Assembly: GCA_017448345.1 (NCBI GenBank)
Contig: JAFSLP010000088.1
Location: 859-64,858 of the forward strand
Source: Paludibacteraceae bacterium
Lineage (GTDB): Bacteria > Bacteroidota > Bacteroidia > Bacteroidales > Paludibacteraceae
Reading direction: 5' to 3'
Length of the DNA: 64,000 nt
Shown here: positions 15,370 through 61,921 of the stretch, in pieces
Position numbering within the stretch: the stretch's first letter is position 1
Layout of the letters: each line of letters begins with the position of its first letter
Translations under genes and position numbers: made by a program
The notes under the pieces: generated by a model
Databases searched by the model: none
Seen by the model: only the letters and a program-made list of their open reading frames with translations
Told to the model about the DNA's origin: nothing

Positions 15370-15392
15370 TCTGAATTTGAAACTTAATATCT

Positions 15393-15416: not shown

Positions 15417-15435
15417 GGGCAAAACATTAAATAGT

Positions 15436-15906: not shown

Positions 15907-16017
15907 TTATTAGCGACGAGGTGGATGATGTGAACCGATAGATTAAATGGGTGGCACACTCCAAGCGGAGTAATGACAGGGTTGGAACACACTCTGCAAG
16001 ATGTCACTAAACCGGTT

Positions 16018-16168: not shown

Positions 16169-16217
16169 CTTGGTCGGGTTCACGACAGCCACCTATCTAC
16201 TCTATCTTGTTTTTGTT

Positions 16218-25200: not shown

Positions 25201-26487
25201 CGATGGGTTTCCCTTGCTGATGCCGTAAAAAGCATCAACGGTATGCAGTTGCTTATACAGAAGTTAATCAACGAAATCATCCAGTCGCTTAATGACAAAC
25301 TCGCAAGGACGAATGATAATATCGGTATCAGCGAAGACGCGCTTACTGCCAACCGTGCAGTAGAGGTGCTGCAATCCGGATATGACGAGAGTGTGTTTGC
25401 TGCGGATGGAACGACCAAGGCTATTGCTCTTGCAGGACTGGCAGACGAATATACTGCGCTGACTGACAATTTGGCAGAATTGCGTTCGACACATGCCAAG
25501 ATAGTAGCGGCACAGGCGGTTGATTTGAGTGCAGACTATATATCCGATGAGGATGAGAGCAAACTGACAGCCGTCGGACTGAAGAGCGTATCTGCCATGC
25601 TTCGCGGCATCAACATCAAGGAGGTGATTGAGCAGTTGGTTCAGGAAGAGGCAGCCAAACGATACGGACTGGTGGACTCCAATCTGCTGTTTGAGCATTT
25701 CGGAAGCGGAAAACTGATACTCGAAAAGCAAGGTGACTTATGGGTCAAAGGAGAACGTGCCTATACGGATGTTCAGTTGTCCGGCATAGGACTGCAAGTT
25801 GCCACCGAAGCGGAAAGCGGAATGCGCTATCGTATCGAGACTAAGCCCACCAACGCAATAGCCGTCCAGTTCGATTACAACACAGAGGACAAAGGTGTGC
25901 AGGTGTTATTACAGACACGTCCTATTTCGTTGGAAACTCCTTTCCTCAAATCATTTTACAGGATTGTGCTGCGAGGTGCGTTTGAGAAGAGTGATGATAT
26001 CACCGTGACATCCGAGAAGAAAAACAAGTTTCTCATCACAGACCGAATTACGCTTTCCAAGTACTGCGACGGCAAGGATGTGGTGCTCTACTATCGGAAA
26101 CATGCAGTCGTTACCAACTCCGGTAACACCACTACGACCATCTACAAATGGCAATGGGAGACGAAAGACGGAGAAGCAGTTGTGCTCAAAAACATCGGAC
26201 TGGCACAGGCATCCAGCATCAGTTCGGAGGACACGATTACCATTGCTGTTCACGAGCACTATGCCGGTCTATATATCTTCGGCAGTCTGGATGGTAACCA
26301 TTGGGATTTTCTGGAGGGAAAGGAGAGACTGCTATCCAATCACCGCTTCCATGATATAGGAGTCGAGACACACCGTGTCAGTTACCGGTATATCATGGTG
26401 GTGTTTGCCGCCACGCTATCGCAAGACAGTCATATAGACGGACTTGAAATGACAAGTAATGTAAAATATAGTAACAAACTAAAATAG
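22273..26487 (+). CDS. Large virion protein of unknown function (1404 aa)
   Basis: An uninterrupted 4.2-kb ORF in the structural operon. No motif recognised. Confidence 0.7.
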   Translation: MEFEGEHRKIVLRGIERHAANGVMQDGGMNEVINLIPRNGSYVAYSPTNRGDTKANDIVMVRIHHTTTGDNVIVVKKNNYLINGKDASEHIEVLRYDQWVSKHHGNCAIQVLETITEEKKVYKQRTVKEIVFIGNRMDILTEEYGIEHWLWKNGAYENVDDLGAHTNEDGGFKLPSVDFKVRSGIFDGTTVHSGARYIKKYDSYFPDPSPYYENKTEMAKFAYTGKDTHANMLALLDAIRYQGGITGYVLVAAAYRKKGSTPSNPQYIMASPIMLMGAPEIYMKDGLFRKVGDDDIKKPDKTYLLDRCVYTDRAGQERCYNELFDMVDTDSNDVTTMPEGSHVTLDWTNDSCIMRQIQSIDVDSYTVSYNSDSKQVLVTTSNTALRPPAVYSQIYALFNHGSSNGARTAADVTNRAISISHATGNVLSMRINGEVLEKYRDEVDKLCVFISPVISPYKHTDSAGIVMRSTYKSQPTKENAFFFCEKLCSGSYNMHKSGCAGSFLPEMKSADEIRKSIQDIAGLYTNAQLTFDVETLEKDKWIDVNLSGGMLQSDRLVQHDDTMIKTSDMMPVSIVTGHIFGYNERLHVFNFQKKEVYRLPYSSLAYNNGAGQYKAYDTNHVPYEYAIEIRDSKDSLVISHFTCESPAINPLVAYGDTDTKSIRIVKRFQKGNKLYAGYKDFTPIPFAGVACGYISTTLKPIDIAVEEVSLRDYTNAFREEKIEADSNEYGKNEIRVSEFGSVLFEPSKSYRVGNGTIIALARLSMGLSQDNCGKFPLVIFSTDGIYTLGVDTSGEGAYAQQPPPISRVICTNKNGICELDGAVLFPSEYGLHMVTTDGVKPIVLQANGTPKNLPDSEAGLDVYKRAISHDKIVQLSGDISYEDFLDYINADGGGETGEGTYIRYLHAINSVVIYNRRKPYSYMVELGSWLVTKLEQRILFDDNDFPKQTFWVSPQLEGTVSVEQDVYNAATGETEKRWVSLADAVKSINGMQLLIQKLINEIIQSLNDKLARTNDNIGISEDALTANRAVEVLQSGYDESVFAADGTTKAIALAGLADEYTALTDNLAELRSTHAKIVAAQAVDLSADYISDEDESKLTAVGLKSVSAMLRGINIKEVIEQLVQEEAAKRYGLVDSNLLFEHFGSGKLILEKQGDLWVKGERAYTDVQLSGIGLQVATEAESGMRYRIETKPTNAIAVQFDYNTEDKGVQVLLQTRPISLETPFLKSFYRIVLRGAFEKSDDITVTSEKKNKFLITDRITLSKYCDGKDVVLYYRKHAVVTNSGNTTTTIYKWQWETKDGEAVVLKNIGLAQASSISSEDTITIAVHEHYAGLYIFGSLDGNHWDFLEGKERLLSNHRFHDIGVETHRVSYRYIMVVFAATLSQDSHIDGLEMTSNVKYSNKLK

Positions 26488-26538
26488 GAGGAAAGCCCCG
26501 TATTAACAGCAAGTATTATCAGCGCAGTAATAGCAGGT

Positions 26539-27324
26539 GTGACTGCCATTACGAGCGCAGGAATGGCGGCAGCAGAAGCGGACAAGGCACGCAAGACAGA
26601 GGCGAAGAACAAGGCGGAGATAGAGGAGGAAAAGCGCAAGAAAGAAAACCTCTTCAACCTGCGTTATCACCAGGACATGACCGACCGTACGGAAGTGCAA
26701 GGTATGCTGCGTGAGTTACGCGAACAGCAAGACGCTCAACGTAGTGCCAATGAAGCACGCGGTGCTGTTCTTGGTGAGACCAAAGAACAGCAGATAGCGG
26801 AAGAGAACGGCATGAACAAGGCGTTTGCTGACAGCGTTGCGAATATCGCAAGCAATGCGAGTGCGCTTAAAGACGGCTATCTGAACGATTATGAGAACAG
26901 CCTGAGCAAGTACTATCAGGACAAGCGCGAACATAACTCTCGTATGTCGCAGATAGAAATGAACGGCAGCAACCAATGGGCACAAGCGGCTAACAATGCT
27001 TTCGGTGCAGCAGCGAGTGCGGCAGGAGTGGCGGCAGGTGCAGCAGAAGGAGCGAAAGCGCCATCCAAAGCGCCGAGTGCCAACACGCCCGGCAGTACGC
27101 CTAACAAGATTCAGGCAGCCGGTCCTGTCAAGATTGGTGACAACGGAATGCAGTTGAATCCCGATGGTACGATTACCAATCCGACGCTTAATCCATGGGA
27201 TAGGATTCAGCAGGATTTCCGTTCTCAATACAGCATCAGCAAACCCACTACGCCCAACTGGTCACAAATCTACGGATATGGTGGCGGTTGGGGCGTACCT
27301 AACAGAATAGGAGGCGCAAGATGA
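26539..27324 (+). CDS. Putative internal virion / ejection protein (261 aa from the GTG at 26539); the start is uncertain
   Basis: It is charged and coiled-coil with Ala/Gly-rich low-complexity regions. The frame is open back to the TAG of the previous gene and encodes a hydrophobic segment there. Confidence 0.55.
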   Translation: MTAITSAGMAAAEADKARKTEAKNKAEIEEEKRKKENLFNLRYHQDMTDRTEVQGMLRELREQQDAQRSANEARGAVLGETKEQQIAEENGMNKAFADSVANIASNASALKDGYLNDYENSLSKYYQDKREHNSRMSQIEMNGSNQWAQAANNAFGAAASAAGVAAGAAEGAKAPSKAPSANTPGSTPNKIQAAGPVKIGDNGMQLNPDGTITNPTLNPWDRIQQDFRSQYSISKPTTPNWSQIYGYGGGWGVPNRIGGAR

Positions 27325-28218: not shown

Positions 28219-31200
28219 ATGGCACAGATTACACAAGAGACGCTTAATGATATGATTGCTACCGTTAACGCGGGCAAGCAATATGATATGCAGACTTGGC
28301 ATCAGAAATTCCCAGAGTTCGGAGGGGATGATGCCCTTGTGCAGTCTGCTATGGATTATGTGGCTACATATAACTCCGGTAAATATAATACGACCGAGGA
28401 GTTAAATGCCCAGTTCCCGGAGTTCTTTACAGGTGGTGAGCAGTCCGATTCCTTCATGTCATTTTTAGCAGGACAAGAGCCTGTTATTCCTAATTTCTGG
28501 CAACAGACGACAGAGCGAGTTATCGGAAAAGAGGAAGACATCATGTCGGACGACGCAAAGAAGCGTCTTCCGAAAGGTTATATGGTGCTCAATGACGATG
28601 AACGCAGGAAAGCAGAACAAAAGGCTATTCAGGAACAACTCGCTTATGACCAGATGAGTTTTGTAGAACGCGAGTCGCAGTTGCCAGTACTGGGTGCGAT
28701 GGATTTGATGCGCCAGCGTGTGGATAGCAATAACCGTATTCGCCGCGCCAACACAAAGACACCTGAAGAGTTGTTCACGGTAGCGTTAGCGTCATGGCAG
28801 AAGACGAACGAGGGTATTCACCGTTCGGCGCAGTACGAGCGTGATTTGCAGGAAGCCATCGCCAAGTTCCAAAAAGACAAGCAAAAAGAGTTCTCGTCTG
28901 ATATTGCCGTCAATGCTATTATTCGGAACGCCAAGGCAGGCAAGATTACGAAAGAGCAGGCGGAACAGCAATTACAGTCCATTTGGGAAGCCAAATATAG
29001 CGAGGAACTGGCCACGTTGCTGCAACCTATCCAAGAAACCTTCCAACAGGATTTCTATAATGCCAACCAGCGCGTACTGGATGAAGAGGTGAACCGTCTT
29101 GCCGGAGAGGAACTGACACGAGATATTGCCAAAACCCAATCGAAATTCGCTGCATTGGATAAGAAATGGTCTAACGAGATATATGAGGCGACTGGTGCCG
29201 GAAAGGGTATCGGTCTCGGCGCAATAGCATATTCCCGCATGCCGGCGAAAACGGCGAACAGTAGTCCGAAAGTTCAGGCAGCGAAGACGCTCACATCAAG
29301 AGCAAAAGAGCTACAAGAGGCAGCTCTGAAAAACAAAGGTTTCGGAAGCGCATTCGGTAGTACTATTACCGATATAAGTACATGGGATTTCGGTTTGACC
29401 GATTTCAATGTAGCTCTTGGAATCAATGTGCTTGTTCGAAAGATTGAGCGCGACGAGGAGTTGGATGATTATGATAAAGTAGAACTTGATGCTATCTTGG
29501 AATATATGGCAGCACAAGCCATGTACTCCGGTCAATTAGGCAGATGGTACAAGGCAGGAACGACTACTGCGCAGGCAGTGCCATTCATGTTAGAGTTTTT
29601 GCTTATGCCGATTGACAGTATCAAGAATGCAACCGTCAAAGCCATGTTCAAATACGGTCTGAAAAAATATGGCATCAAGCAAGGTACACGCAAGGCAGTA
29701 GACCTTGGTATTTCAGCAATGGGTCGTTTCGCCGGTTCAATGGCAGCGGCAGGCCTGATGACCGTTACTTTTGATACTCCAAAGGTTATGGCCGGTACGA
29801 TAGAGCGCACGACCGGAACTGTCAATGCCCCGGATTTGTTGAATGATGGTCTGCAATATACAGGACGAACCGGGCAACAGGGATTAGCAGAGGCGGCGTA
29901 CAACGCCACGGTGGATAAATACATTGAAAACCTGAGCGAGATGATATTATCCGACCTTGCTCCTGCTTTGAAACTCGCAGGTATGTCAAAGATATTCCGT
30001 CGTGTAGGCGGACAGAAAGCGCTTGATATTGTGCGCAAACTGACGATGGATAACAAGGTAGCAGGAGCATTACGCACGATGCAGACCGGTGATATCTTTG
30101 AGGAGTTTGCAGAAGAGGAGGTTGGCAACCTACTCAAATGGTGGTTGAGTACCGATGTTTCAGCCGCCGAGGGCAATACCGGCTTCGATGCCGATTCGCA
30201 GATAGACACTATCTTGGGTCTTATCCCTATGCAGGCTGCGTTCGGTGTCGGCAAAGCAGGTGCGGCTACCATCAACTTTGCCAAAGGCAAGAAGATGTGG
30301 TCTGATTACCGCAGCCACCTGACCGAACAAGGGCAGCAACTTCTTGGTTCGTTCATGGAGGCAAAGACCGATGAAGAAGCCAAAGAAGCATTGAGTGCTT
30401 TGCTGCATCAGATGAGGACCGAGGATAATATGGATGCGGAAATGAAAGAGGATTTCCTGCATAGTGTTCTTGGTGAATACCAGAGCAAGTATGCCGAGTA
30501 TAGCGCCGAGGAAGAGAAAGAAGAAGGACAGGCATCCGCCGAGCAAGAAGAGCAAGCGGAGGTTCCGGCTAACGAGGAGGAGGGTCAGATACAAGACAAT
30601 GGTACGGAACACCCGACCGAAGAAGAAACAACGGTGGAGGTGGAGACTGCCGAGCCTGTACAGGAAAAGGCGCGTCCTGTTACCGTGGTGATTGACGGCG
30701 TTGAGCAGCAGATTACTTTCTCCGGTTCTAAAATCGTGTATAATGCCGATGGCAGTATCAACCACGACAAGAGCGGACAGATTTATCTCCAAGATGCAGA
30801 CGGTCACCTTGTCCCAGGAAGCCAGCAAGAGGAGATGTCAGAGGCATTAGATGCGGCGTTACGCCAAGAGAAGCAGAACGGAGACGAGTTACTGAAGAAT
30901 GACATGCCAATAGAAGAGGTTGCCGAGGAAACGCCAGCGACCGAGGAGGCACCAGTTACCGAGGAAAGTTCGGCAACTGAACAATCCGCCTATCCATTAC
31001 TGGAAGACGGTACACCTGACTTTGCTCAGATGACACCCGAGCAGCAGGTAGCATACGCTATGGAAACCGGCGGCGAGGAAGCAGCAGCGGAAACCATACA
31101 GACAGCCATCGAGGAACTGACTTCTGAAATGGAGAGCGTAGGCAAGAAGAAGGGACTTGTACCCGCACAGCGCGTAGCGGAAAAGAACCGCATCCGTCAA

Positions 31201-34200
31201 GAGATTGCGGCGTGGCAAGCATTGGCACAACCGCAAGAGAGCGCACCTGCGCAAACAGACATACGTCCGGTAGGTATTAGTGACTTCGGTCCTATATATG
31301 ACCAGTTCAGAGGCAAGCCGCAAGAGGCTATTGCTTTCCTGATGGAAAGACAGGACGGTGAGTGTATAGGCGCATTGAGTCACCCGGAGATTGGTCCGAT
31401 TGATTTGGTATGGGGAGTAGAGGGAACAGGCGGTAGTGACGGTTTTGGATTATCCAAACTTGTCAAGTTCCACCCGGAGGTATTGGATAACCTGCAAGGC
31501 ATCTTGGACGAAATGCACGTAACGCTTCGCTCCGAGAATCGCATCCAATTAGAGAGCGAACGCTATAGGGCAGGTGTCCGGCTCACATGGAACAATGAGA
31601 GCAAGACATGGTTGCTTACTGCATTTGAGAAAGAAGAATATAAAGAAAACAGTGCCCTCGACAAGACGACAGACACTGACGAGACCGCCAACGGCGGCGA
31701 GGGGAGTGACACAGCTCTTCCCCAGAACACTATTTCCGGCGACAAAGGTACAACAAAAAATCCAGATACGCAAATTTCCGGCGAAGAAAATGCAGAAAAA
31801 GTGGATTTGAGTGCTGAAAATGTAGTTTTGATGTACTATAATAAAGGCAGCAGGTATGTTTTCTGCCGCAAGGAAGAAGACGGAACCATGATTCGTCTCG
31901 ACACTGGCAAGCCTTTGGAGACCACTCGCAATGGTAAGGAGACCGCATGGAGGGAAGCAGACCGAAAAGTCGTTCTTATCGACGGCGTGCCGTACTATAT
32001 GCTTGGTAGCAATCCCAACTCGACTACCGTCAATGTTGTTCCTGTGGAGGCAAGCATGCCGGTTATCACAAGTACAGGCGAGAATAGTAGCGTTATTGCT
32101 GTAGAGAAAGGTGCACTTACCGACGAAAAAGGCAAACGTATTTTCCGCAATGCAGAAGACAACCGTGAGGAGCAGTATAAGACCTTGCGCAGAGAAGCGA
32201 AGACGCTGGACGATATAGCCGATTATGTGGTGTTTGACTACATGAAAGACGGTGAGAAGAAAGCGATTACTCTTCGCGATTTACTGCGTATGTTCAGTAC
32301 GGTAGATGAGGATATGAACCGCATCTATATCGGTGACAAGCGCTATGGCGGGGAAATGGATAGGTTGCTTTCTGAAATGGGCAAGGATATGGAAGAGCGC
32401 TCGGATGTAGAGGAGATTCTGAATGAGCGTATTAGCGAAGCGGCTATTGTATGGAACACGATGGCGGAGGATGGCGAGAAAGTCAAAGACAAACAAACTC
32501 TTCCGAAGAAGATTCGTGCCTTTATCGAAGTGCTTGACAAACGCGGCTGGGCGGAAAAGGCGGATTACTTTGCCGGTCGTGTTGCTTCTGAACAACAGCC
32601 GTCCGAGGAACAGGAGCAGAAACCGAAAGTCAGCAAGCGCATAGCGACGGACGAGGATATGCAGACCTTGGCGGACTTGAACTATGACTTGCGTGATGCC
32701 GAGCGTGCAGGCGATTATGCCGAAGCGGACAGGATTAAACAAGAGATTGCGTCCTTGCGCGAACAGATAATCGAGTACAACATCGGTAATACCGCCATAG
32801 ATGAAGCTGCCGGTCGCCGCACCATCGGCTATCTGCGCAATGCCGGTGTCGATATTGAGGAGATTAGCCAAGACGCGGCAGAGCAGATGATGGACGATGA
32901 GACAGTAGAACAACTGCGGTCGTCGGACAGTACCGTATATGGCTTTACGCAAGGAGACAAGATATATGTCATCAGCGGCAAACTCAACCCGAATACACCA
33001 GTTCACGAATACACGCACCTTTGGGCGAGAGCCTTTGCCAAAGCCAACCCGAAGAAATGGTCTTCCATCGTGAACACTCTCAAACAAACTCCAACGTGGG
33101 CGGAGGTAGAGGCTGATGCCAACTATGCATCTATCCACGGAAACGAGCAGGCGATAGCAAGCGAGGTTCTTGCGCGTCTGACCGGTGAATACTGGGGGCA
33201 GATAGACGAGAACGGCAAGAGCAAGATGGATGAGACTTTTGAAAAAAAGGCTCTTCTTGTGCGTGTGCGCTCCGCTCTACGCTCTTTCTGGCAGCAGGTG
33301 GGAGAATGGTTAGGTATCAAGACCAGCGCTCGTATAAGTGACTTTGAGGGTCAGTTGCAAGCCTTGGTACGTCGTCCGATACGAGACCTGATTGAGACGG
33401 ATTTCGATAAAAAATTCCAAAAAATGCAGGAAGGTCTTGACAACGGGGGTGAAAATGTATTATCTTTGCAGTCGATTTCAGAATTAACCGACGCATTAGA
33501 AGATGATATACGACAAGGAAACAAACCAGTGGTATTTGAACGAGTTCCACTTGCAGCAATGCAAGAGGGCTTGCGCAACGAACGAACGCTTACGGAAGCG
33601 CTTGCCATTGTCGCACTCAGAAGTCGCCGCCAACATCGCGCGTATATTCGAGACGGACAAGAAGTAACAGCCGAAGAAAAGAACAGCCGTGACGGGTCTA
33701 ATAATGAAATGCTATTAGACCTGATTCAGTATGCCAAAGAGAAAGGCATGTGGGTGGAAGATGTGGTTGAGACGCTGGATGAGAAATACGGTTTCGACAA
33801 CCGCGTGGAGAATATGCCGGATGGTGAAGCGACCGGAGAGAGCCATGTATGGATAGACAAAGAGAACGGTGTCGTTATCAAGGCGAAAGCCGACTACCAA
33901 TACGAGACCATAGAAGAGTTGTTGGAGGGCATGATGCTTAACAACTGGCTATTCAAAGGCAACAGGCAGCATATCATCGGCTTTGGTATAGACCGTTCGG
34001 AGGGGCGTGATGCAATCCGTGTGATATATGAAACGCCATACGTCGAGAAGCATGAAAGCAAACCGCTCACCCAGGAGGAGAAAGACCGATATATGGCTGC
34101 TTACGGTTTCACCAAGGCAGACAGCCCTATCACGACAGAGCGAAAGGGAGAAAAATCCAACTACACCAATGGTGAGTTTATGGTAGCAGACCTCCACAAT

Positions 34201-37200
34201 CAGAATATCTTCTGGGATGCGGACGGCGATGTCCGTTGTATAGACCCCATTGTCAAGTGGGAAGCAGGAGAGCACTATCAGGTGCAGACTCCAGAGCAGA
34301 AAGAGCGTGACGAATGGAATGAGAGCCGGTTGGACGAAATGTTTGACGGCCAGTCAGAGTATCAGATATTCACAGAGGAGAAACAGCCTGCTCATGCAGA
34401 GCCGATGAGTTGGCTGCAACGTAAGGTGAACGCAGCTGCCGACCAAGCGAACGGCATCCGTGTCATGCAGCAAGAGATTGAGCGTATAACAGGACGCAAG
34501 ATTACGTATGACAAAGACGTACGTGAAGCGCTTGAACACTCGTCGAGTATCATCGACCAAGCATTGAAGCGTTTTGAGAAAGGACCACAGCGACGGCTTG
34601 ACAAGGCTATGCGTAACATTCGCAAGCAGATTAAGAAAAGCGGTTTGTGGAAGAAAGGTATGTCTGATGTATACGAGAACAAAGGCATACCTGTTACGCT
34701 CACTCCAAGTGCGCAAGATATACTGGAGCGCTATATGATGGCAAAAGACAACCTTGAACGTATCGAGTTTGGAACAGAACCGCGTATGCACGAGTTAGCT
34801 GTCCGTCTGCGCCAACAGATGAACATAGATGCAGAGGGCGAAATGGAAGATGCAGATGTGCTGTCTGCATACGTTGAGCAGTTTGAATCACAGTTCAAGG
34901 AAAGCGAGATAGCCGGCTTATGGAAAGCCATCAACGAGTGTACTGATTTTGGTCTTGACTGGCTGCTGAAAGGCGGTGTTATTGGTAAGGATTATTACGA
35001 GCGTTTGAAACAACGCAGGCATTACATTCCGGAGCGTGGTTTCGCACAACTACAGACGAATGAGGAACTGCGCGACGAGATAGACAACCGCAAGCGCGGA
35101 AACCGCAATGGCGGTAAGCCAATGGCGACGCAGGCGGCTCATGGTGGCGAGAGTATGGCGACCGACGTGATTGCCTATATGCTAATGCTCAACGCCAATT
35201 CTGTGCAGGTGAGCCAAGAGAATACCGTCAAGCGTGCGATGTTCAATCTGATGCAAGAGAACCTTGATGCCTGTCAGCAGATGGGCTATCCTGTTCCGCA
35301 GCAAGTATGGTACATCCGTGACGGTGTGGACGAAGACGGCAACCCTCGCTACAAGGCTTCGATGGAACAGCCGTCGGAAGAAATGCAAGCGCAGAACGAT
35401 GCAGTCAAAGAGCGCATCAGAGACCTGCAAGAAGACCTGCGTATGTTCGGTAAGGATAATGCGGAGATGAAAGCCCATATCCAGTCACTTATTGATGAAA
35501 CGAAGAAAGAGTTGCTTATCGTGCAGAAGCGCGATGCCGGAGCCGCAAGCGTTGATGTAGCGATGCTTGCCGGTGAGGAGGTGCCCAAAGTAGTTGTAAG
35601 CGTACCTACGGAAGACGGTGATGTTGCCCAATATATAATGCAGTTCCCAGCACGTCACGAGATAGCGAACGCATTGAACGGCATTACAGGAACGAAATGG
35701 GAGGATAAATTGCAGAAGATGATAGGCTCAAATATCAGTGCCCTGTACACGGTATATAACCCTACTTTCTTTGCGACGAACCTACCGCGAGACATTGAAT
35801 GGATTATTGCGAAAGGTTCTGCCGAGCGCGGTATGTTATATCCGGCGTTCTTTGCTGCTCAAATGGCACGACCTGCTACCACCATACTACCGATACTGGA
35901 ATATGTGTCTGGTGTTGATGTGGACGGTCGAACAGGTGGCAGCACATTGAGCGATGCATTCACTACAGACGGAACGATAGAACACGAGTTCTACCAATTC
36001 CTTAACGGCGGTGGTAATACCGGGTACACGCAGATGAACAACATTCAGAAGTTCCGTAAGAAAGTGGAGCGAATGACGGAAGGTCCTCGTCCTGTCAAGG
36101 CTACGATGCGTTTCCTCTTTGCGGAGGTTGCGCCAGCCATCAATGAGTTCTCGGAGTTATGGACTCGTTTTGCAGTATATCGTGCAACGAAAGCGATGCT
36201 ACATAGCGAGAATGCAACTATTCGCAGAAACAAACCGATGAGCGAAGAGCAGATAGAGGCAGAAGCTTTGCATGACGCAAAGAATTTTTCCACGAACTTC
36301 AACCGTAAAGGCGCAGGAGGCTTCATTAACTTCTTCAACTCATTGAGTATGTTCAGCAACGCCGCCATTCAGGGTGTGTCCGGCGCGATACGTACATTCG
36401 AGAACCCGAAGAAAGCAATCAGAGGAGCAGCTTCTATTATGATACTCCCAGCGTTTATCGGCTGGATGTGTACCATGCTGTCTCCGGATGATGATGATGA
36501 GGGTTTTGTTATTCCATCCTTCATGCGTGAGAACAACCTTATCTTTATGGATAAACGTGTACCATTGTCGCAAGAGCTGATTCCGTGGTACCGCATAGGT
36601 GTCAATTATGCGCTTATGCAACAGGGCAGGCGAACCAAAGAGCAGGCAATAGAGAATATCGGTATGGGATTTGCCGAGCACGGAATGCCCGTTCCTCCAG
36701 TTATCGGTTCTGCTCTATCCACCGGTATAGATTGGATAATGGACGATGACGATGATTATAGCGACAAAGAGACGCGATTAGTGAGTGCTATGACGCAACT
36801 CATGTACGCCCAATATCTCGGTAATCTGCATCAGTTGGAACAGAACAAGAACTGGGCAGGTTCCAATCTCCGCAATGAGTTTGCACAGGGCAGACCGCAA
36901 TACCTCTTCGGACAGAATGAGTCGGAACTGTTCCAAGACTTGGCGAAACTCCAATACCGGCTTGCAGGCGGAGATATGAATGTTCCGCAGAACACCAAGA
37001 GTGGCAGTCTCAAAAAGATGAATGAGTTCGAGGACATCAACCCGAAAGAGATACGCGCCTATTTGAGCACTATTGTTCCGAGCGGATGGGTAGATATTGC
37101 AACCTATGCGTACAGCGGTATCTTCGGAGACGAAGAGCCGAGGGGAAAAGACAAGCCTATAGTCAATAAGTTCCTTATCAACACAGACCGAGACGTGTTT

Positions 37201-37773
37201 GAATACTCCGTTACCAAGGAGCTGAAAGCTATGATTAAGGCCTATGATGAGAAGATGAAATCTCTTGAGAATATCTACAAAGGCTACACTGGAGAACAAT
37301 TGAGTGCGGCAGATAGACGACTTGGTGAGGTTCTTGAAGCCACCTATGGTATGAGTTATGAAGAGTGCAGAAGATACATTGAGGAAGAAATATCCAAAAA
37401 TGGCAACGATGCTGCTCTGGAAGCATACTTAACTTTTGGTGTAAATCTTGCAGAGAAAGATTGGAACAACAAAGTAAATGCGAACTGGAGGGCTCTCACA
37501 GACGCTTATACAAAATTGAGTATCTATAGTAAGGGAATAAAGCAGGGGAAAAGTGAAAGAGAGTTCATCCGTGGCATTGAAGCAGAGACCGGCATAAAAC
37601 TCGACGAGCACACATCACTTAATGAGGCTCGTAAGATATTAACAGCCATGATGTTAAGTGAGATAATGCGAGTAAAGGGTATTGAGCACACTATACCCGA
37701 TGTACAAAAGTGGATGCTTGACCAGCCGTGGCTTCCTGCGACAGAACGAGCAAGAAAGTCTGTGAAAAAGTAG
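28219..37773 (+). CDS. Giant multidomain (polyvalent-type) virion protein, 3184 aa
   Basis: A single uninterrupted 9.55-kb ORF. It has Gly/Ala-rich membrane-like segments near the N-terminus and near residue 2730, and long acidic linkers. Recognisable motifs are the zincin HEYTH at 33004-33018 and a kinase-like module with VVIKAK ... ADLHNQNIFWDADGDVRCID at 33814-34263. Confidence 0.85.
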   Translation: MAQITQETLNDMIATVNAGKQYDMQTWHQKFPEFGGDDALVQSAMDYVATYNSGKYNTTEELNAQFPEFFTGGEQSDSFMSFLAGQEPVIPNFWQQTTERVIGKEEDIMSDDAKKRLPKGYMVLNDDERRKAEQKAIQEQLAYDQMSFVERESQLPVLGAMDLMRQRVDSNNRIRRANTKTPEELFTVALASWQKTNEGIHRSAQYERDLQEAIAKFQKDKQKEFSSDIAVNAIIRNAKAGKITKEQAEQQLQSIWEAKYSEELATLLQPIQETFQQDFYNANQRVLDEEVNRLAGEELTRDIAKTQSKFAALDKKWSNEIYEATGAGKGIGLGAIAYSRMPAKTANSSPKVQAAKTLTSRAKELQEAALKNKGFGSAFGSTITDISTWDFGLTDFNVALGINVLVRKIERDEELDDYDKVELDAILEYMAAQAMYSGQLGRWYKAGTTTAQAVPFMLEFLLMPIDSIKNATVKAMFKYGLKKYGIKQGTRKAVDLGISAMGRFAGSMAAAGLMTVTFDTPKVMAGTIERTTGTVNAPDLLNDGLQYTGRTGQQGLAEAAYNATVDKYIENLSEMILSDLAPALKLAGMSKIFRRVGGQKALDIVRKLTMDNKVAGALRTMQTGDIFEEFAEEEVGNLLKWWLSTDVSAAEGNTGFDADSQIDTILGLIPMQAAFGVGKAGAATINFAKGKKMWSDYRSHLTEQGQQLLGSFMEAKTDEEAKEALSALLHQMRTEDNMDAEMKEDFLHSVLGEYQSKYAEYSAEEEKEEGQASAEQEEQAEVPANEEEGQIQDNGTEHPTEEETTVEVETAEPVQEKARPVTVVIDGVEQQITFSGSKIVYNADGSINHDKSGQIYLQDADGHLVPGSQQEEMSEALDAALRQEKQNGDELLKNDMPIEEVAEETPATEEAPVTEESSATEQSAYPLLEDGTPDFAQMTPEQQVAYAMETGGEEAAAETIQTAIEELTSEMESVGKKKGLVPAQRVAEKNRIRQEIAAWQALAQPQESAPAQTDIRPVGISDFGPIYDQFRGKPQEAIAFLMERQDGECIGALSHPEIGPIDLVWGVEGTGGSDGFGLSKLVKFHPEVLDNLQGILDEMHVTLRSENRIQLESERYRAGVRLTWNNESKTWLLTAFEKEEYKENSALDKTTDTDETANGGEGSDTALPQNTISGDKGTTKNPDTQISGEENAEKVDLSAENVVLMYYNKGSRYVFCRKEEDGTMIRLDTGKPLETTRNGKETAWREADRKVVLIDGVPYYMLGSNPNSTTVNVVPVEASMPVITSTGENSSVIAVEKGALTDEKGKRIFRNAEDNREEQYKTLRREAKTLDDIADYVVFDYMKDGEKKAITLRDLLRMFSTVDEDMNRIYIGDKRYGGEMDRLLSEMGKDMEERSDVEEILNERISEAAIVWNTMAEDGEKVKDKQTLPKKIRAFIEVLDKRGWAEKADYFAGRVASEQQPSEEQEQKPKVSKRIATDEDMQTLADLNYDLRDAERAGDYAEADRIKQEIASLREQIIEYNIGNTAIDEAAGRRTIGYLRNAGVDIEEISQDAAEQMMDDETVEQLRSSDSTVYGFTQGDKIYVISGKLNPNTPVHEYTHLWARAFAKANPKKWSSIVNTLKQTPTWAEVEADANYASIHGNEQAIASEVLARLTGEYWGQIDENGKSKMDETFEKKALLVRVRSALRSFWQQVGEWLGIKTSARISDFEGQLQALVRRPIRDLIETDFDKKFQKMQEGLDNGGENVLSLQSISELTDALEDDIRQGNKPVVFERVPLAAMQEGLRNERTLTEALAIVALRSRRQHRAYIRDGQEVTAEEKNSRDGSNNEMLLDLIQYAKEKGMWVEDVVETLDEKYGFDNRVENMPDGEATGESHVWIDKENGVVIKAKADYQYETIEELLEGMMLNNWLFKGNRQHIIGFGIDRSEGRDAIRVIYETPYVEKHESKPLTQEEKDRYMAAYGFTKADSPITTERKGEKSNYTNGEFMVADLHNQNIFWDADGDVRCIDPIVKWEAGEHYQVQTPEQKERDEWNESRLDEMFDGQSEYQIFTEEKQPAHAEPMSWLQRKVNAAADQANGIRVMQQEIERITGRKITYDKDVREALEHSSSIIDQALKRFEKGPQRRLDKAMRNIRKQIKKSGLWKKGMSDVYENKGIPVTLTPSAQDILERYMMAKDNLERIEFGTEPRMHELAVRLRQQMNIDAEGEMEDADVLSAYVEQFESQFKESEIAGLWKAINECTDFGLDWLLKGGVIGKDYYERLKQRRHYIPERGFAQLQTNEELRDEIDNRKRGNRNGGKPMATQAAHGGESMATDVIAYMLMLNANSVQVSQENTVKRAMFNLMQENLDACQQMGYPVPQQVWYIRDGVDEDGNPRYKASMEQPSEEMQAQNDAVKERIRDLQEDLRMFGKDNAEMKAHIQSLIDETKKELLIVQKRDAGAASVDVAMLAGEEVPKVVVSVPTEDGDVAQYIMQFPARHEIANALNGITGTKWEDKLQKMIGSNISALYTVYNPTFFATNLPRDIEWIIAKGSAERGMLYPAFFAAQMARPATTILPILEYVSGVDVDGRTGGSTLSDAFTTDGTIEHEFYQFLNGGGNTGYTQMNNIQKFRKKVERMTEGPRPVKATMRFLFAEVAPAINEFSELWTRFAVYRATKAMLHSENATIRRNKPMSEEQIEAEALHDAKNFSTNFNRKGAGGFINFFNSLSMFSNAAIQGVSGAIRTFENPKKAIRGAASIMILPAFIGWMCTMLSPDDDDEGFVIPSFMRENNLIFMDKRVPLSQELIPWYRIGVNYALMQQGRRTKEQAIENIGMGFAEHGMPVPPVIGSALSTGIDWIMDDDDDYSDKETRLVSAMTQLMYAQYLGNLHQLEQNKNWAGSNLRNEFAQGRPQYLFGQNESELFQDLAKLQYRLAGGDMNVPQNTKSGSLKKMNEFEDINPKEIRAYLSTIVPSGWVDIATYAYSGIFGDEEPRGKDKPIVNKFLINTDRDVFEYSVTKELKAMIKAYDEKMKSLENIYKGYTGEQLSAADRRLGEVLEATYGMSYEECRRYIEEEISKNGNDAALEAYLTFGVNLAEKDWNNKVNANWRALTDAYTKLSIYSKGIKQGKSEREFIRGIEAETGIKLDEHTSLNEARKILTAMMLSEIMRVKGIEHTIPDVQKWMLDQPWLPATERARKSVKK

Positions 37774-55595: not shown

Positions 55596-55752
55596 TTTGT
55601 ATCTCCTCTCCTATATAATACGGCTTTTTTGCCGTGTCAAAGTCGAACGTGAACGCATCATATTCCGGATAATCAACCATAGTTTTCCTGCGTTTATAGT
55701 GTGCTCCCCACTCATTGCAGCAGGTGGCGGGTACGAACCGCCCATAGTTCAT
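55582..55752 (-). CDS. Possible small protein (56 aa, below the ORF-track cut-off)
   Basis: Hand translation gives MNYGRFVPATCCNEWGAHYKRRKTMVDYPEYDAFTFDFDTAKKPYYIGEEIQNERL. Its 3' end overlaps the next start. Confidence 0.3.
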   Translation of the reverse strand: MNYGRFVPATCCNEWGAHYKRRKTMVDYPEYDAFTFDFDTAKKPYYIGEEIQNERL

Positions 55753-55905
55753 ATTACCTGCTCTGAACCGGCAGAAAGCCGACCAACCACTCGCGTCCTA
55801 CCGACCTGTTGCTTCTACCAATTCAGTACGAACAGCTTGCGCCTCCTGATTGCGGTTTCCACTCATTCGCCAAAGCCTTGTCCGTTGGTCGGCGCTGCCA
55901 GTCTA

Positions 55906-56298: not shown

Positions 56299-56428
56299 AA
56301 AGTCTCAAAGCGTCTGCCTATACTACGCTGGGTCTTAATAGATTAAACACAACGAAAGCCGCAGCACTTGCCACGGCTTTCCGCTCTCCGCCTGATGCCT
56401 GTTTATACTCGCGAAGTCGAGTGCGACC

Positions 56429-57001: not shown

Positions 57002-57007
57002 AATCAC

Positions 57008-57218
57008 AGCGGTTTACCTGCACCGCAAGGCTTTAAGATGAAACAATAAGTGCTGCTCAATCAGCATAGAAAGCGGGCAACGAACCAACGTCACCCGCCT
57101 ATTTTTGCCGTGGCGGTTAGCCTACACCGCAAGGGTCTACACGGCACAATCTCATAAGATGATAATTTTAGCGTTATTTACTACGTAACCATAGCGGTTT
57201 GCCTACACCGCAAGGATA
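57008..57218 (-). repeat. Three dispersed copies of a 26-nt hairpin motif (plus strand: GCGGT-N8-ACCGC-AAGG)
   Basis: Copies lie at 57008-57033, 57112-57137 and 57193-57218: agcggtttacctgcaccgcaaggc, ggcggttagcctacaccgcaaggg and agcggtttgcctacaccgcaagga. Confidence 0.85.
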
Positions 57219-58154
57219 GATATGGCTACGCCATTTTCCTTTTTAGGCATGTTCACCCATGCCTCTCCTTTCATACATTCATCGCTGCATAGTCGGAGTC
57301 GGTCTATACAGGGAGGGATTTCACCTCTGCGTGCGCGGTCTCCCCCTTGGGAAATATCGCCATTAGCCTTTCCTCGGCACACCTTTTTACACTCGTAGCC
57401 ATTGACACACTACACCATACTTTCAAAGACCGAAACCGCACAGCTTACGCTGCTAAACAAATACTCAGAATTTTACCCAACCTACTCCGTAGGTACTATA
57501 AGGGCTGCGCTATCCTTGCGCTACTTGCGACGTGCTTAGTACCTCATACGCTTTTATATATGTGCGCTGCCTACTACACTCCTCTCGTTACACGTCCGCC
57601 GTACTTGTGTCAGTTGTTCAATGTTCGCTTGTCATCTGATTGGCTCGCTTGCCTCTCGTTTGATGACGGTGCAATTATAAGGCTGCAAGCGCCTTTTTCC
57701 AAAACCGAGCACCCAAGGACACGACGCGAAATAAGGAACGAGCACGTGCCCATGTGAGGAGATTGTAACTCGTTGAAACACAGCAAGTTACAAAGAAAAT
57801 ACAAGCAAAATACAGCAGCGAAAAAACAAATGAACGAGCCTGCAAGGTGGGGGAGTACACACGAGGACTACCCTATACATGGTAGGGGTATATACTCATG
57901 TCTAACTCGCACAGTCACTACGAAAAACGGGATTTCCTCGCGCCTACGCGCACACGCCCAAGGCATACATTAAAATGCGGCACAATCGAGAGAGGGGGTA
58001 CACAAGGATTCCCGATGGCACTATGGAATAATCGAGACCTCACAAAATTTCGGATGGTATAGTATCGAAACTATACTATTCAGATAGTACATAGATAAGA
58101 TATATTACGTTTTTTACTAATACCCTTATAATAAGGGAGTTAGATTTTAAAAAT

Positions 58155-58948: not shown

Positions 58949-59089
58949 GCTTCATTTAACCAAAATCTAATACCATGAAAAACACAATCCCTTCACCGGG
59001 TATAAGATGGGATATTTACGGGAGTCTAACACCGTTGTCACTTGCTTACCTGGCAAGGATTCTTTCTTTGAACTATAATATCCCAATGT

Positions 59090-59161
59090 TGCGGAAGCGA
59101 GATTCGAACTCGCGACCTCCAGCCTATGAGACTGGCGAGCTACCGCTGCTCTATTCCGCTG
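59090..59161 (-). tRNA. tRNA with a CAU anticodon (Met-type) and an unpaired 1:72 position
   Basis: Hand-folded cloverleaf:
- Acceptor agcggaa/ttccgca (A1 x A72).
- D arm gagc-agcggta-gctc.
- Anticodon arm ccagt-CTCATAG-gctgg.
- Variable region aggtc.
- T arm gcgag-ttcgaat-ctcgc.
- Discriminator A; CCA is not encoded. Confidence 0.75.
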
Positions 59162-59214
59162 TTTGTGTCCGCTGATGCGCTCAACGGACGAAGCCGATGC
59201 AAATTTTTTTTTGC

Positions 59215-59299
59215 GGAAGATGAAGGATTCGAACCTCCGGCACGTTGCCGTGCATCTCTTTAGCAAAGAGCCGCCATAGACCACTCGACCAATCTTCCA
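59215..59299 (-). tRNA. tRNA-Ser (GCU anticodon), type II with a long variable arm
   Basis: Hand-folded cloverleaf:
- Acceptor ggaagat/atcttcc.
- 3-bp D stem gtc/ggc.
- Anticodon loop TTGCTAA.
- Variable arm gcacg-gcaa-cgtgc.
- T arm ggagg-ttcgaat-ccttc.
- Discriminator G. Confidence 0.8.
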
Positions 59300-59306
59300 A
59301 TTTTGT

Positions 59307-59379
59307 TGCGGGAGAAGGATTCGAACCTCCGACCTCCGGGCCGTAACCCCGGCAAGCACTCCACTGCTCTATCCCGCGA
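59307..59379 (-). tRNA. tRNA with a UAC (Val) anticodon on an initiator-tRNA-like scaffold
   Basis: Hand-folded cloverleaf:
- Acceptor cgcggga/tcccgca with a C1 x A72 mismatch.
- D arm gagc-agtggagt-gctt, giving A11:U24.
- Anticodon arm ccggg-GTTACGG-cccgg, giving G29-G31:C39-C41.
- Variable region aggtc.
- T arm ggagg-ttcgaat-ccttc.
- Discriminator A. Confidence 0.75.
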
Positions 59380-59385
59380 TGGTAT

Positions 59386-59838
59386 CTAAAGCACCCTGAT
59401 AGACTCAAATTCGTCTCGCTGCCCTCGATATATGATGTTTGGGTTTACCCACCATTCACCTCGACACTTTTGCCTAACGACATCCTTTTTTGCCAACTCC
59501 ATTAGTCCTCGATAGACCGATTGTCGAGATTTATAGCCGGTGTAAGCAATGCACTCGTCGTAATCGAACTGCACATATCCACCGAATTGCAAGCGGCTTG
59601 CTATGTACGCGAATACTGCTACTGCTTCGCTGCTCATCCCTATAAGTATACTCGGCTCATAGAACTTAACGAAATCTGTTGTATCGTATATCTTCTGCGT
59701 TCCGACTAACTGTGTGGCTGTTCGCACCTCTCCAGTTACGAGATTATAGGTTTCAAGCGGTGCAGTACCCACGGCATCTGCTTTGAACCTCTTGCGACAC
59801 TTCTTAACCAACACCTTATAGGGATTGCCTTCTACCAT
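59386..59838 (-). CDS. Winged-helix DNA-binding protein, candidate repressor or RepL-like protein (150 aa)
   Basis: The C-terminal ...CIAYTGYKSRQSVYRGLMELAKKDVV is wHTH-like. The gene lies between the integrase and the tRNAs, and its stop is 7 nt from the tRNA 5' end. Confidence 0.45.
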   Translation of the reverse strand: MVEGNPYKVLVKKCRKRFKADAVGTAPLETYNLVTGEVRTATQLVGTQKIYDTTDFVKFYEPSILIGMSSEAVAVFAYIASRLQFGGYVQFDYDECIAYTGYKSRQSVYRGLMELAKKDVVRQKCRGEWWVNPNIIYRGQRDEFESIRVL

Positions 59839-59899
59839 CGCAGCGACAAAGGTACTACTATTTCCTCATATAGCCAAAAGTTACAAAACATAATAACAT

Positions 59900-61150
59900 T
59901 TACTGCAACTTTTCTTGTTCCCCAAACACATAATCGAGGACTTTGCGGTTTGCTCGGTCGATTCTTGACCAATCCGGACGGATGTAAACATCTGCCATCG
60001 GATTACGTCCAACGTGTGCCAGACATAAATCAATATCGTCCTTACTTATATCGCAATTATTCCTCGCAATGGTCGCCCAAGTATGCCGGAATTGGTATGG
60101 TGTTATTACGCCAAGACCTTTCTGTTCGCATAAAGTGATGATTCTACGACGCAATAGGCTATTATATTCAGTATTTGGCTCTATTCCCTCGAAATGGAGT
60201 AATCTGCCCTCTTTGCTATCTGCCTTATATTTCTCAAACAGGTACTCTACCTCCGGTTCGATGTGAATGGAAATCTCAACCTTGCTTCCGCTGCGCTCTT
60301 TCGTCTTGTGTCGGGTGAAAGTAATGCGCTTCGTCTCCGGGTCATACTGGTCTTTGGTGAGGTATTGGATATCTAACAGGTTCATGCCACACATACAGAA
60401 CGACATCTTGACCATATCGAGTGCAACTTGCGTCTTTTCGTGTGGGCTTGACAGAGATAGGAACTTGCGCAGGGTGTCAATATCAAGACTACGCTTCTTC
60501 GTCGCCTGAACCTTGTACCTTTCGAAGTCAAAGAACGGGTCATGGGTGATGATTTTATGAAACTCGGTATTGTACTCCTTGACAAGTATGCGGAACACCT
60601 TGCTCAAATGGTAGATGTAAGACTCCTTTGACGAGTCTTTGAGTTGCTTATACCCGACAACCTTGTCTTTCTTGATGATAGGAATTTGCTTGTTATCAAG
60701 AAACTCCTTGTACCGGCGCAAGAAAGCAGAGTTGAAATCAGTGACCATCATCTGCTTAACTCCCATTTCCTCCAGATTGGCGAGAGCGCTTAATAGTACG
60801 CGCTCTTTTACTGGCTCCTCCTCTATCAACGCGCGGCAGCGGGCAAGGAAGTCGATGTTCCTGGTCGATTGGTTAAGATACTGCGCAAGGTCTTTTGCGT
60901 TCATGCCCATGAGTGTGCTCATGTCGATTTCGAGGATGCGTTTCTCGAAGCCACGAATAGTCTGACCGGTTCGCGCAAGGATGAACTGGTCTTTAATCTC
61001 AAATGATTTCTTGTTAATCTGCGCACGCGAACAATACAAGCCGGTAGGAATGTAACATGGCTTACGATTGTGCGTGACTCTGATGCTGACGGGAAACTTA
61101 CCATCCCGGCGCTCTTGGTGTCGTAGTACGACTGCTTTGAAAGTTGCCAT
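59900..61150 (-). CDS. int: Tyrosine recombinase / phage integrase (416 aa)
   Basis: It has the Bacteroidetes-type N-terminal arm-binding region (ATFKAVVLRHQERRDGKFPVSIRVTHNRK) and a catalytic C-terminus with YQFRHTWAT, LAHV and ADVYIRPD (R-H-R-Y type signature). Confidence 0.85.
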   Translation of the reverse strand: MATFKAVVLRHQERRDGKFPVSIRVTHNRKPCYIPTGLYCSRAQINKKSFEIKDQFILARTGQTIRGFEKRILEIDMSTLMGMNAKDLAQYLNQSTRNIDFLARCRALIEEEPVKERVLLSALANLEEMGVKQMMVTDFNSAFLRRYKEFLDNKQIPIIKKDKVVGYKQLKDSSKESYIYHLSKVFRILVKEYNTEFHKIITHDPFFDFERYKVQATKKRSLDIDTLRKFLSLSSPHEKTQVALDMVKMSFCMCGMNLLDIQYLTKDQYDPETKRITFTRHKTKERSGSKVEISIHIEPEVEYLFEKYKADSKEGRLLHFEGIEPNTEYNSLLRRRIITLCEQKGLGVITPYQFRHTWATIARNNCDISKDDIDLCLAHVGRNPMADVYIRPDWSRIDRANRKVLDYVFGEQEKLQ

Positions 61151-61878: not shown

Positions 61879-61921
61879 CATTTTGCGCTGCAAAATTACT
61901 ACTTTTTTTTGATATATACAA
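61879..61921 (-). promoter_or_regulatory. Minus-strand consensus promoter; right copy of the 43-bp direct repeat (candidate attR core)
   Basis: The reverse complement reads TTTG-N20-TAATTTTGCAGCG. It is 41/43 identical to 25-67 and now reads into the toxin-antitoxin pair. Confidence 0.5.

Follow-up and report, generated by a model that had tools for sequence, protein, structure and literature searches.

An initiator-type tRNA with a UAC anticodon and candidate GUA-start genes in a Bacteroidales prophage

To our knowledge, all natural initiator tRNAs known so far carry the anticodon CAU and start proteins with (formyl)methionine. Non-AUG start codons are normally read by this CAU initiator through mispairing. 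On non-near-cognate codons, the native E. coli initiator attains about 0.01-1% of the level at AUG. The laboratories of Schulman and RajBhandary reportedly worked with GAC/GUC and CUA/UAG anticodon-mutant initiators. E. coli initiators with an altered anticodon begin translation at the codon that matches it, and i-tRNA(AAC) is loaded with valine and yields formyl-Val N-termini (bioRxiv 10.1101/2021.05.25.445580; PMC11744186). A search of 7.7 million papers in PMC and bioRxiv full text for a natural non-CAU initiator returned engineered systems only. Here, we describe a tRNA gene encoded by a prophage in a 64,000-nucleotide (nt) stretch of DNA from a Paludibacteraceae bacterium (GCA_017448345.1, contig JAFSLP010000088.1, positions 859 to 64,858 of the forward strand; in the following, the window is this whole stretch). 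The tRNA has an initiator body and the anticodon UAC. It is probably a functional phage initiator whose anticodon was switched from CAU to UAC and which would be dedicated to the GUA starts of a few phage genes, at least those beginning at 3669 and 26500. Engineered initiators have the same design, an initiator body with a swapped anticodon that starts at the complementary non-AUG codon. In contrast to these laboratory constructs, the UAC tRNA is natural, conserved and phage-encoded, and it is accompanied by candidate native GUA-start genes.

The tRNA gene is real and is located on the minus strand, its span being one base lower than the 59307-59379 of the original prediction. The anticodon, which had been placed at 59344-59346, is likewise found at 59343-59345 in plus-strand coordinates. 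On this strand, ARAGORN places a tRNA-Val(tac) at 59305-59378, and the Rfam tRNA model matches 59378 to 59306 with 49.2 bits (E=1.7e-7; gathering score 29). In RNA letters, the tRNA reads CGCGGGAUAGAGCAGUGGAGUGCUUGCCGGGGUUACGGCCCGGAGGUCGGAGGUUCGAAUCCUUCUCCCGCAA; CCA is not encoded. The Rfam alignment reveals C1xA72 followed by A73, G2:C71 and C3:G70 in the acceptor stem, A11:U24 in the D stem, the anticodon stem CCGGG/CCCGG with three consecutive G:C pairs (G29-G31:C39-C41) and the 7-nt anticodon loop G32-U33-U34-A35-C36-G37-G38. Pair 1:72 is flagged as non-standard. Energy minimization gives this cloverleaf too, again leaving positions 1 and 72 without a pair. The unpaired C1xA72, A11:U24, the three G:C pairs and the loop G-U-UAC-G-G had been proposed after folding by hand and are all borne out.

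Bacterial tRNA-fMet of the E. coli metZWV/metY type shares the 1x72 mismatch, A73, G2:C71, C3:G70, A11:U24 and the three G:C pairs. It differs in the anticodon (CAU vs. UAC here) and in the loop (C32...A37 A38 vs. G32...G37 G38 here), and it is charged by methionyl-tRNA synthetase and reads AUG, whereas charging by valyl-tRNA synthetase (ValRS) and reading of GUA are expected for the UAC tRNA. Thus, the latter agrees with bacterial initiator tRNAs in all structural features tested except the CAU anticodon. Judged by its structure, it would be initiator-like in its working, yet it is not a strict member of tRNA-fMet. The ValRS identity elements of an elongator tRNA-Val(UAC) are present, namely the anticodon UAC with A35 and C36, and A73. 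The paired 1:72 and the pyrimidine11:purine24 of such an elongator are replaced by C1xA72 and A11:U24. In the GenBank phage collection, the sequence matches annotated phage tRNA-fMet/tRNA-Met genes and not Val genes. Among E. coli genomes, blastn aligned the tRNA with nothing but T-arm fragments of Arg and Pro tRNAs, which was useless for the isotype.

The initiator scaffold with UAC is conserved. The window phage was found in about 30 sample blocks, and an identical tRNA array is present in six loci. The related locus L010 agrees with the window throughout the acceptor stem and the anticodon arm; its D loop differs, and its T stem reads GUCGG/CUGAC vs. GGAGG/CCUUC in the window, a compensatory change. 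Homologues of the gene for a protein of 150 amino acids (aa) that precedes the tRNA array led to four further related phages (L087/L088, L089-L092, L093 and L054/L015), whose diverged UAC tRNAs sit directly after this homologue. An alignment of 21 initiator-scaffold tRNAs (13 UAC, 2 AAC, 2 CAC, 1 CAG and 3 CAU) gave a cloverleaf that is 95.5% paired, with double changes in 14 of 21 pairs and a covariation score of 0.396; shuffling gave 0.182, with none of 500 shuffles reaching the observed score, and slid controls gave about 0.1. Pairs 2-7:66-71 are formed in all 21 tRNAs and contain compensatory changes. Position 1:72 is unpaired in 20 of the 21 tRNAs, in the six combinations CxA, AxA, CxU, UxU, CxC and AxC; on this alignment, the mismatch itself is the conserved character. 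A11:U24 is also found in 20 of 21. The UAC of L092 is carried on an anticodon stem with G30:C40 as the sole G:C pair of 29-31:39-41. UAC and initiator features thus co-occur in related tRNAs whose stems covary. CAU is found in some relatives (L003/L004, L082 and the 735-kb phage L095). UAC, however, is kept within the clade and recurs elsewhere, so that the window tRNA is not a lone deviant among relatives that all carry CAU. An exact search for the anticodon arm in IMG/VR had zero matches. Both a megablast search with 24 kb of the window and a tblastn search with the 3669 gene found nothing among the GenBank phages; this means that this collection contains no sequenced close relative.

Two explanations that assign no decoding role to the tRNA can be weighed here. 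The first sees in it a copied phage tRNA-fMet that is decaying into a pseudogene, and close CAU paralogues and relatives do exist. But the cloverleaf is perfect, the sequence is identical across many samples, diverged copies retain the anticodon loop and show compensatory stem changes, and the tRNA type recurs in several phyla. With UAC and the 1x72 mismatch kept while T and acceptor stems change in a compensatory manner, decay is hardly credible and this part of the original prediction is refuted. According to the second, the tRNA is a decoy or a nuclease-resistant species directed against host anticodon-loop nucleases or initiator-tRNA-targeting toxins. Phage tRNAs are known to evade tRNA-cleaving defences, T5 tRNAs being an example, and these are likewise phage-encoded with an unusual anticodon loop. 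G32, G37 and G38 of the UAC tRNA, as well as U37 in some members of the class, would agree with such a role. T5-type tRNAs, however, retain the anticodon of the host tRNA they replace, as a resistant replacement must, and decode in its place, whereas here the anticodon is changed and matching start codons exist. Furthermore, G32 and G38 also occur in the CAU relatives L003/L004 and are therefore a lineage trait not tied to UAC, no nuclease partner has been identified, and the GTA starts and their co-variation with the anticodon would be left unexplained. A decoy is very unlikely.

Two unrelated genes of the window phage start at or next to a conserved GTA. The first belongs to the phrog_27246 family. 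Its frame is open from 3702 and lacks ATG, GTG and TTG over 87 codons; GTG 3441, located 76 codons downstream of GTA 3669, is the first canonical start. In the comparison of the translated open reading frame (ORF) with phrog_27246, query residues 68-131 fall on profile positions 68-131 of 143. Since query and profile positions agree, the family is as long as the GTA-started protein. In an alignment of 12 homologues, protein P0038 begins with MK-TERTYNAGLRSEHFIAAV and the window protein with V(GTA)-R-NERIYNNRLRKQHFIAAV, the first Met of P0038 aligning exactly on the window GTA. The invariant family motif SPAPQFYITPKQAL is encoded far upstream of GTG 3441. GTA 3669-3667, one of two in-frame GTA triplets named in the original prediction as weak hints, is thereby supported as a start. 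The start codon is GTA in nine cases (window, L078, L079/L080, L081, L086, L085, L054, L087 and L092) and ATG in one (L082). At several homologous loci, an in-frame stop precedes the GTA by 2-5 codons and the next canonical start follows 11-79 codons later. A conserved internal Val (HFxxAV, 15-20 codons further on) served as control: it is encoded by GTA in five, GTG in one, GTT in two and GTC in two cases, whereas the start valine in the same sequences is GTA in nine of nine. Several phrog_27246 homologues have been truncated or mis-extended by gene callers, e.g. P0042, P0047 and P0039. A confident all-helical structure was predicted for the 3669 protein (predicted local distance difference test, pLDDT, 88.6), for which a comparison with the PDB returned no significant match. 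The gene heads a leftward operon beside a divergent promoter region. As the L010 junction shows, this operon extends in the circular form via the integrase gene as far as the tRNA array. This layout suggests, speculatively, a regulatory role. A gene for a rhomboid-family membrane protease (2750-3265, minus strand) always follows the phrog_27246 gene in related phages (L078-L087, L092).

The second gene is located downstream of the tape-measure gene. Its first canonical start is GTG 26539, and gene callers took ATG 26563. The tape-measure ORF ends with TAG 26485-26487, which is followed by GAG GAA AGC CCC GTA(26500) TTA ACA GCA AGT ATT ATC AGC GCA GTA ATA GCA GGT GTG(26539) ... GGA ATG(26563). 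Homologues have a hydrophobic N-terminal helix. The homologue P0011 starts with MVASIISAVIAAATAATSAGMAA and the window encodes ..V-L-T-ASIISAVIAGVTAITSAGMAA; the peptide ASIISAVIA, the same as in the P0011 N-terminus, is encoded upstream of GTG 26539. Between L076 and the window, the region 26500-26562 differs at four positions, and all four changes are synonymous (AGC>AGT, GCA>GCT, GTG>GTA, ATT>ATC). The GTG>GTA change leaves L076 with zero canonical starts before the gene-caller ATG. Both the conserved peptide and the restriction to synonymous changes upstream of the canonical starts argue for GTA 26500-26502, the other in-frame triplet named before, as start. The arrangement TAG-GAGGAA-N6-GTA is kept in the window, L076 and L075, and GGAGG with 6-8 nt spacing also precedes the ATG starts at 27321, 39861, 52681 and 55012 of the window phage. 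Two further family members are P0021, which begins with an ordinary Met, is complete at the N-terminus and seems to be encoded on the L082 contig (51,519 bp), and P0025, which was called from an internal Met only and appears to be encoded on the L087 contig (52,998 bp).

Both genes might be real but translated without the UAC tRNA, either by weak initiation with host fMet-tRNA at GUA or a near-cognate codon or, for the 26500 gene, by read-through of TAG; the tRNA would then serve another purpose. The 26500 ORF is indeed in frame with the tape-measure ORF across one TAG, the near-cognate codons ATT, CTG and ATA occur within the first 17 codons of the 3669 gene, and in E. coli initiation is measurable from many codons. 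However, GTA alone is conserved at a fixed position across lineages, whereas the near-cognates are not. Read-through is impossible at 3669, because a promoter precedes the gene and an in-frame stop (TAG 3705-3703) lies inside this promoter. TAG serves as an ordinary stop for 11 of 68 genes, a Shine-Dalgarno-like element is found 8 nt from GTA 26500, and the relative with a CAU tRNA has ATG. Translation independent of the UAC tRNA is, on balance, quite unlikely.

Other candidates for GTA starts were considered. For further ORFs with an open upstream frame (42893, 46424, 48104 and 52174), PHROG coordinates and tight ATG contexts give no support. A scan for a Shine-Dalgarno sequence with a GTA (or GTT, CTG) start in the GC-rich loci that contain other members of the tRNA class was swamped by spurious ORFs; the best-looking candidate, L037 10735, proved to be a low-complexity antisense ORF. 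Independently of these, a possible third GUA-start gene is located beside the UAC tRNA in a related element (L089 11395 and L092 7246, minus strand). With the context GCTCT-GTA, its start would be four codons past an in-frame stop and 34 codons ahead of the next canonical start. A protein family match for this candidate was not obtained.

The anticodon co-varies with the start codon. Five contigs show the tRNA together with the phrog_27246 gene: in the window, L054/L015, L087 and L092, a UAC tRNA is combined with a GTA start, while in L082 a CAU tRNA is combined with an ATG start. The L082 tRNA, located after the integrase gene and the 150-aa gene, is an initiator-like tRNA-Met(CAU) with C1xA72 and the loop UUCAUGG. 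L082 is close to the window phage (capsid protein 70% and 150-aa protein 75% identical), and L054 is distant from it (38% and 33%, respectively), yet it has UAC and GTA. This means, the pattern does not simply follow clade structure. In addition, the start sites share a context. In all 12 GTA start sites, which derive from the two unrelated genes in several lineages, -2 is C and -1 is a pyrimidine, and 11 of them read GCYCY-GTA; among the 1,839 GTA triplets of the window, 11.6% have C-2 and Y-1 and 0.5% the full context. Position -1 is C where the tRNA has G37 (two sites in the window, L087) and T where it has A37 (L054, L092). The C at -2 is always opposite G38 where the tRNA is known. Consequently, at five of five sites, a small sample, mRNA positions -2 to +3 match tRNA 34-38 by Watson-Crick complementarity. 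Positions -1 and -2 probably pair with 37 and 38. Such a start-site context is a feature of the UAC system and not of engineered initiators. It fits the old idea of an extended codon-anticodon interaction, again with the reservation that pairing is deduced from few sites. The model of Ganoza, a subject reportedly also treated by Esposito et al. in 2003, has A37 interact with U at -1. There, too, -1 is complementary to tRNA 37; unlike in that model, the phage sequences involve both -1 and -2 with 37 and 38, and -1 covaries across phage lineages (C with G37, U with A37).

These data bear on the view that the tRNA is an ordinary elongator tRNA-Val(UAC) that arose from an initiator scaffold by an anticodon shift and supplements the decoding of internal GUA codons, the GTA starts being unrelated. 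Phage tRNAs often supplement codon usage, GTA accounts for 28% of the Val codons in the long genes of the phage, ARAGORN calls a plain tRNA-Val, and one member of the class, L012, has a paired C1:G72. Nevertheless, the 1x72 mismatch is kept in 20 of 21 tRNAs while the neighbouring acceptor pairs covary, A11:U24 and the G:C pairs are retained too, the anticodon co-varies with the start codon and not with codon usage, and -1 and -2 of the start sites match tRNA 37 and 38. An elongator is accordingly considered unlikely. In favour of a natural initiator that would start at GUA, as the original prediction had proposed, are the N-termini of homologues, the exclusively synonymous substitutions and the co-variation of anticodon and start codon.

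Non-CAU anticodons recur on the initiator scaffold. The census pattern comprised an A11:U24-type D stem, a GGG/CCC anticodon stem and a non-CAU anticodon, and three complementary scans of IMG/VR jointly covered every such anticodon. UAC was found in four different phages (L012-L015), among them L012 with its paired C1:G72, and AAC (L037) and CAG (L040) were found once each. Also returned were a single family of UAU tRNAs, in which the acceptor end is paired in the ordinary way, a Tyr tRNA and three chance matches to sequences other than tRNAs. In GTDB genomes, where UAC was the only anticodon searched, five UAC tRNAs on the initiator scaffold were detected, in Amycolatopsis, Kibdelosporangium, two Saccharibacteria and a complete 1.3-Mb metagenome-assembled genome (CP064960). 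The Amycolatopsis tRNA adjoins a TraG/TrwB-like conjugative coupling protein, that of Kibdelosporangium a DDE transposase, and that of CP064960 lies between truB and pnp. A metagenome scan for NAC anticodons yielded further UAC, CAC and AAC members together with some degraded fragments. Valine anticodons are the predominant alternative on the initiator scaffold. The members resemble the initiators of their own lineage, e.g. the Actinobacteria-type ones have C1xU72 and an encoded CCA, which suggests that the class originated repeatedly. Initiator-scaffold tRNAs with a 1x72 mismatch and the anticodons AAC or CAC (Val) or CAG (Leu) are present at L037 9707-9783, L051, L043/L053/L070/L072/L073, L062 and L040 3168-3242; their anticodons suggest possible initiators for GUU, GUG and CUG.

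A mechanism can be proposed in which the UAC tRNA would be co-transcribed with its Ser and Met neighbours, the 150-aa gene probably providing the promoter, and processed, and CCA would be added by a host enzyme. In E. coli, A35, C36 and A73 are the major valine identity elements, on which Schulman and Pelka are said to have worked in 1988. By analogy, host ValRS would recognize these three nucleotides, and the UAC initiator is probably charged with valine. The host formyltransferase would accept it owing to the 1x72 mismatch, G2:C71, C3:G70 and A11:U24. The same set of features would largely keep it away from elongation factor Tu; in E. coli, the mismatch blocks elongator use. The three G:C pairs would permit selection in the P site of the 30S subunit. 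There, UAC would pair perfectly with GUA, a codon expected to be read very poorly by the normal CAU initiator, and initiation factor 3, if it behaves as in E. coli, would accept the complementary codon-anticodon pair. Pairing would probably extend to -1 and -2 of the mRNA via tRNA 37 and 38, to which they are complementary. As the native initiator is weak on non-near-cognate codons, translation of the GUA-start genes would depend largely on the phage tRNA. The outcome would be a private initiation channel: these genes would be translated efficiently only when the phage tRNA is present.

Several points weigh against a dedicated GUA initiator. Every functional step, i.e. expression, charging, formylation and N-termini, is deduced from sequence, and the rules for valine identity and formylation derive from E. 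coli and not from Bacteroidales. The co-variation comprises four UAC contigs and one CAU contig that are phylogenetically related. G32, G37 and G38 are unusual for an anticodon loop, and three members of the class elsewhere have U37, which is atypical of a decoding tRNA. The single TAG between the tape-measure gene and the 26500 ORF makes read-through possible on sequence. GCYCYGTA is not enriched across the window (9 found vs. 5.7 expected), the seven other copies being out of frame or antisense. Moreover, with only two, possibly three, GUA-start genes in a 62-kb phage, the benefit of a dedicated tRNA is unclear. With these points included, a phage initiator switched to UAC remains the probable reading. 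We lean, if only slightly, towards the wider view that Bacteroidales phages run a natural orthogonal initiation channel with a Val-charged UAC initiator, five-base pairing (mRNA -2 to +3 with tRNA 34-38) and conditional translation, and that the same invention (UAC/AAC/CAC) arose repeatedly in other phages, in mobile elements of Actinobacteria and in Saccharibacteria-like core chromosomal neighbourhoods.

The carrier of the prophage is a gut or rumen Bacteroidales bacterium; NCBI assigns identical proteins to metagenome-assembled genomes of Paludibacteraceae, a family of this order. The prophage covers ~62 kb of the window (about 68-61878) and includes the tRNA. It is bordered by probable attachment (att) repeats (Table 1) and flanked by cellular genes encoding a GHL10 glycosyl hydrolase and an SMC/RecF-like protein. 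In the L010 contig, both prophage ends are joined as in a circular form. From the att repeats and this junction it follows that the tRNA array is owned by the phage and is not an attachment site; a tRNA-derived attP was also rejected since the att repeat shows no relation to the tRNA. Promoters of the Bacteroidetes type (TAnnTTTG) are found repeatedly across the window, and the element upstream of the 150-aa gene likely drives this gene and the tRNA array. Some homologues of the 150-aa protein contain the Pfam domain RepL (PF05732), a DNA-binding domain, and the idea of a tRNA-related enzyme was dropped. Phage-wide recoding of TAG was rejected as well: 11 of 68 genes terminate with TAG, and with the standard code the long ORFs stay uninterrupted. 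The order Val-Ser(-Met) of the array is shared by L005-L010, L087 and L093. The tRNA-Met(CAU) paralogue has A1xA72 and A11:U24, but its anticodon stem consists of A29:U41, G30:C40 and U31-G39; it may be an initiator, an elongator or an Ile2 tRNA. Its unusual scaffold carries UAC in L089-L092.

Table 1. Positions of the UAC tRNA, its candidate target genes and the surrounding elements; coordinates refer to the window unless another locus is named
Feature	Coordinates	Strand	Basis or remark
Initiator-type tRNA, anticodon UAC	59306-59378	-	ARAGORN, Rfam, minimum-energy cloverleaf, 21-sequence covariation
Anticodon U34-A35-C36 (GTA on + strand)	59343-59345	-	Sequence; ARAGORN puts anticodon at position 34
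phrog_27246-family gene, 145 aa, probable start GTA 3669-3667	3232-3669	-	
Bacteroidetes-type promoter TTTG ... TAtcTTTG	3693-3730	-	About 25 nt upstream of probable GUA start
Start-site context GCUCC directly 5' of GUA	3670-3674	-	C-1 and C-2 complementary to tRNA G37 and G38
Gene downstream of tape-measure gene, 274 aa, N-terminal hydrophobic helix, probable start GTA 26500	26500-27324	+	
Shine-Dalgarno-like AGGAGG	26486-26491	+	8 nt upstream of GTA 26500; context GCCCC before GTA
tRNA-Ser(GCU)	59214-59298	-	7 nt downstream of UAC tRNA; ARAGORN 59213-59298, Rfam
tRNA-Met(CAU)	59089-59160	-	Paralogue of UAC tRNA; ARAGORN 59088-59160, Rfam
150-aa protein gene	59386-59838	-	Immediately upstream of tRNA array; conserved tRNA neighbour in related phages
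Bacteroidetes-type promoter-like element TAcCTTTG	59845-59882	-	Upstream of 150-aa gene; repeat families D1/D3
Tyrosine integrase	59900-61150	-	
Probable att repeat, left copy, 43 bp direct	25-67		95% identical to right copy
Probable att repeat, right copy	61879-61921		Probable attL/attR pair
UAC initiator-scaffold tRNA in cellular genomes	L027 1766-1840 (CP064960.1); also L022, L024, L017, L025		

Additional elements were noticed in the window phage and its relatives. A Pistol self-cleaving ribozyme (56348-56422, minus strand; RF02679, 55.8 bits, gathering score 34.5) has small phage ORFs on either side and is some 3 kb away from the tRNA array. An ORF-free stretch of 1.2 kb between the early genes and the tRNA array contains, at 57004-57226 (plus strand), a hairpin-like repeat of 38 nt (CCGTGGCGGTTAGCCTACACCGCAAGG...) in three copies, and similar repeated hairpins flank the tRNAs of L082. 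ARAGORN also reported a 90-nt 'tRNA-Glu(ttc)' (55717-55806, minus strand), which has no Rfam support, overlaps small ORFs and recurs in the relatives L005-L009 and L093; most likely, this is either a false call or a structure resembling a tRNA. In L087 (11001-11093), the Val and Ser tRNAs are directly followed by what ARAGORN reads as a tRNA-like gene of 93 nt whose anticodon has four bases (acca). A probable diversity-generating retroelement occupies 14242-17408 (plus strand). It comprises a reverse transcriptase at 16170-17408 (phrog_1423, E=8e-95) and a 155-nt repeat pair (16017-16171/15213-15367, 91% identical) in a template-repeat/variable-repeat arrangement, the copy at 15213-15367 being located at the 3' end of the gene 14242-15369. 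A 3,184-aa ORF (28219-37773, plus strand) follows the tail genes; with its PBECR1 and Kinase-PolyVal domains, the L076 homologue is a 'polyvalent protein'.

Suppressor tRNAs and stop-codon recoding occur in crAss-like, Lak and other phages. There, a phage tRNA likewise makes a subset of genes translatable only when it is present, but suppressor tRNAs act on stop codons in elongation/termination, whereas the UAC tRNA would act on a start codon at initiation. If the proposed role is true, this would be the first natural start-codon reassignment and the initiation counterpart of stop-codon recoding in phages, as well as a natural version of the orthogonal initiator tRNAs of synthetic biology. The rule that AUG, GUG and UUG are read by one Met initiator would not be universal in bacteria. 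Gene callers systematically mis-annotate such genes, which here were cut by 21-76 codons or missed. Although seen in a small sample, the apparent covariation of tRNA 37/38 with -1/-2 would allow the long-debated extended codon-anticodon model to be tested in a natural setting. Some phage proteins might carry an N-terminal (formyl)valine, and phages could gate chosen genes by tRNA supply.

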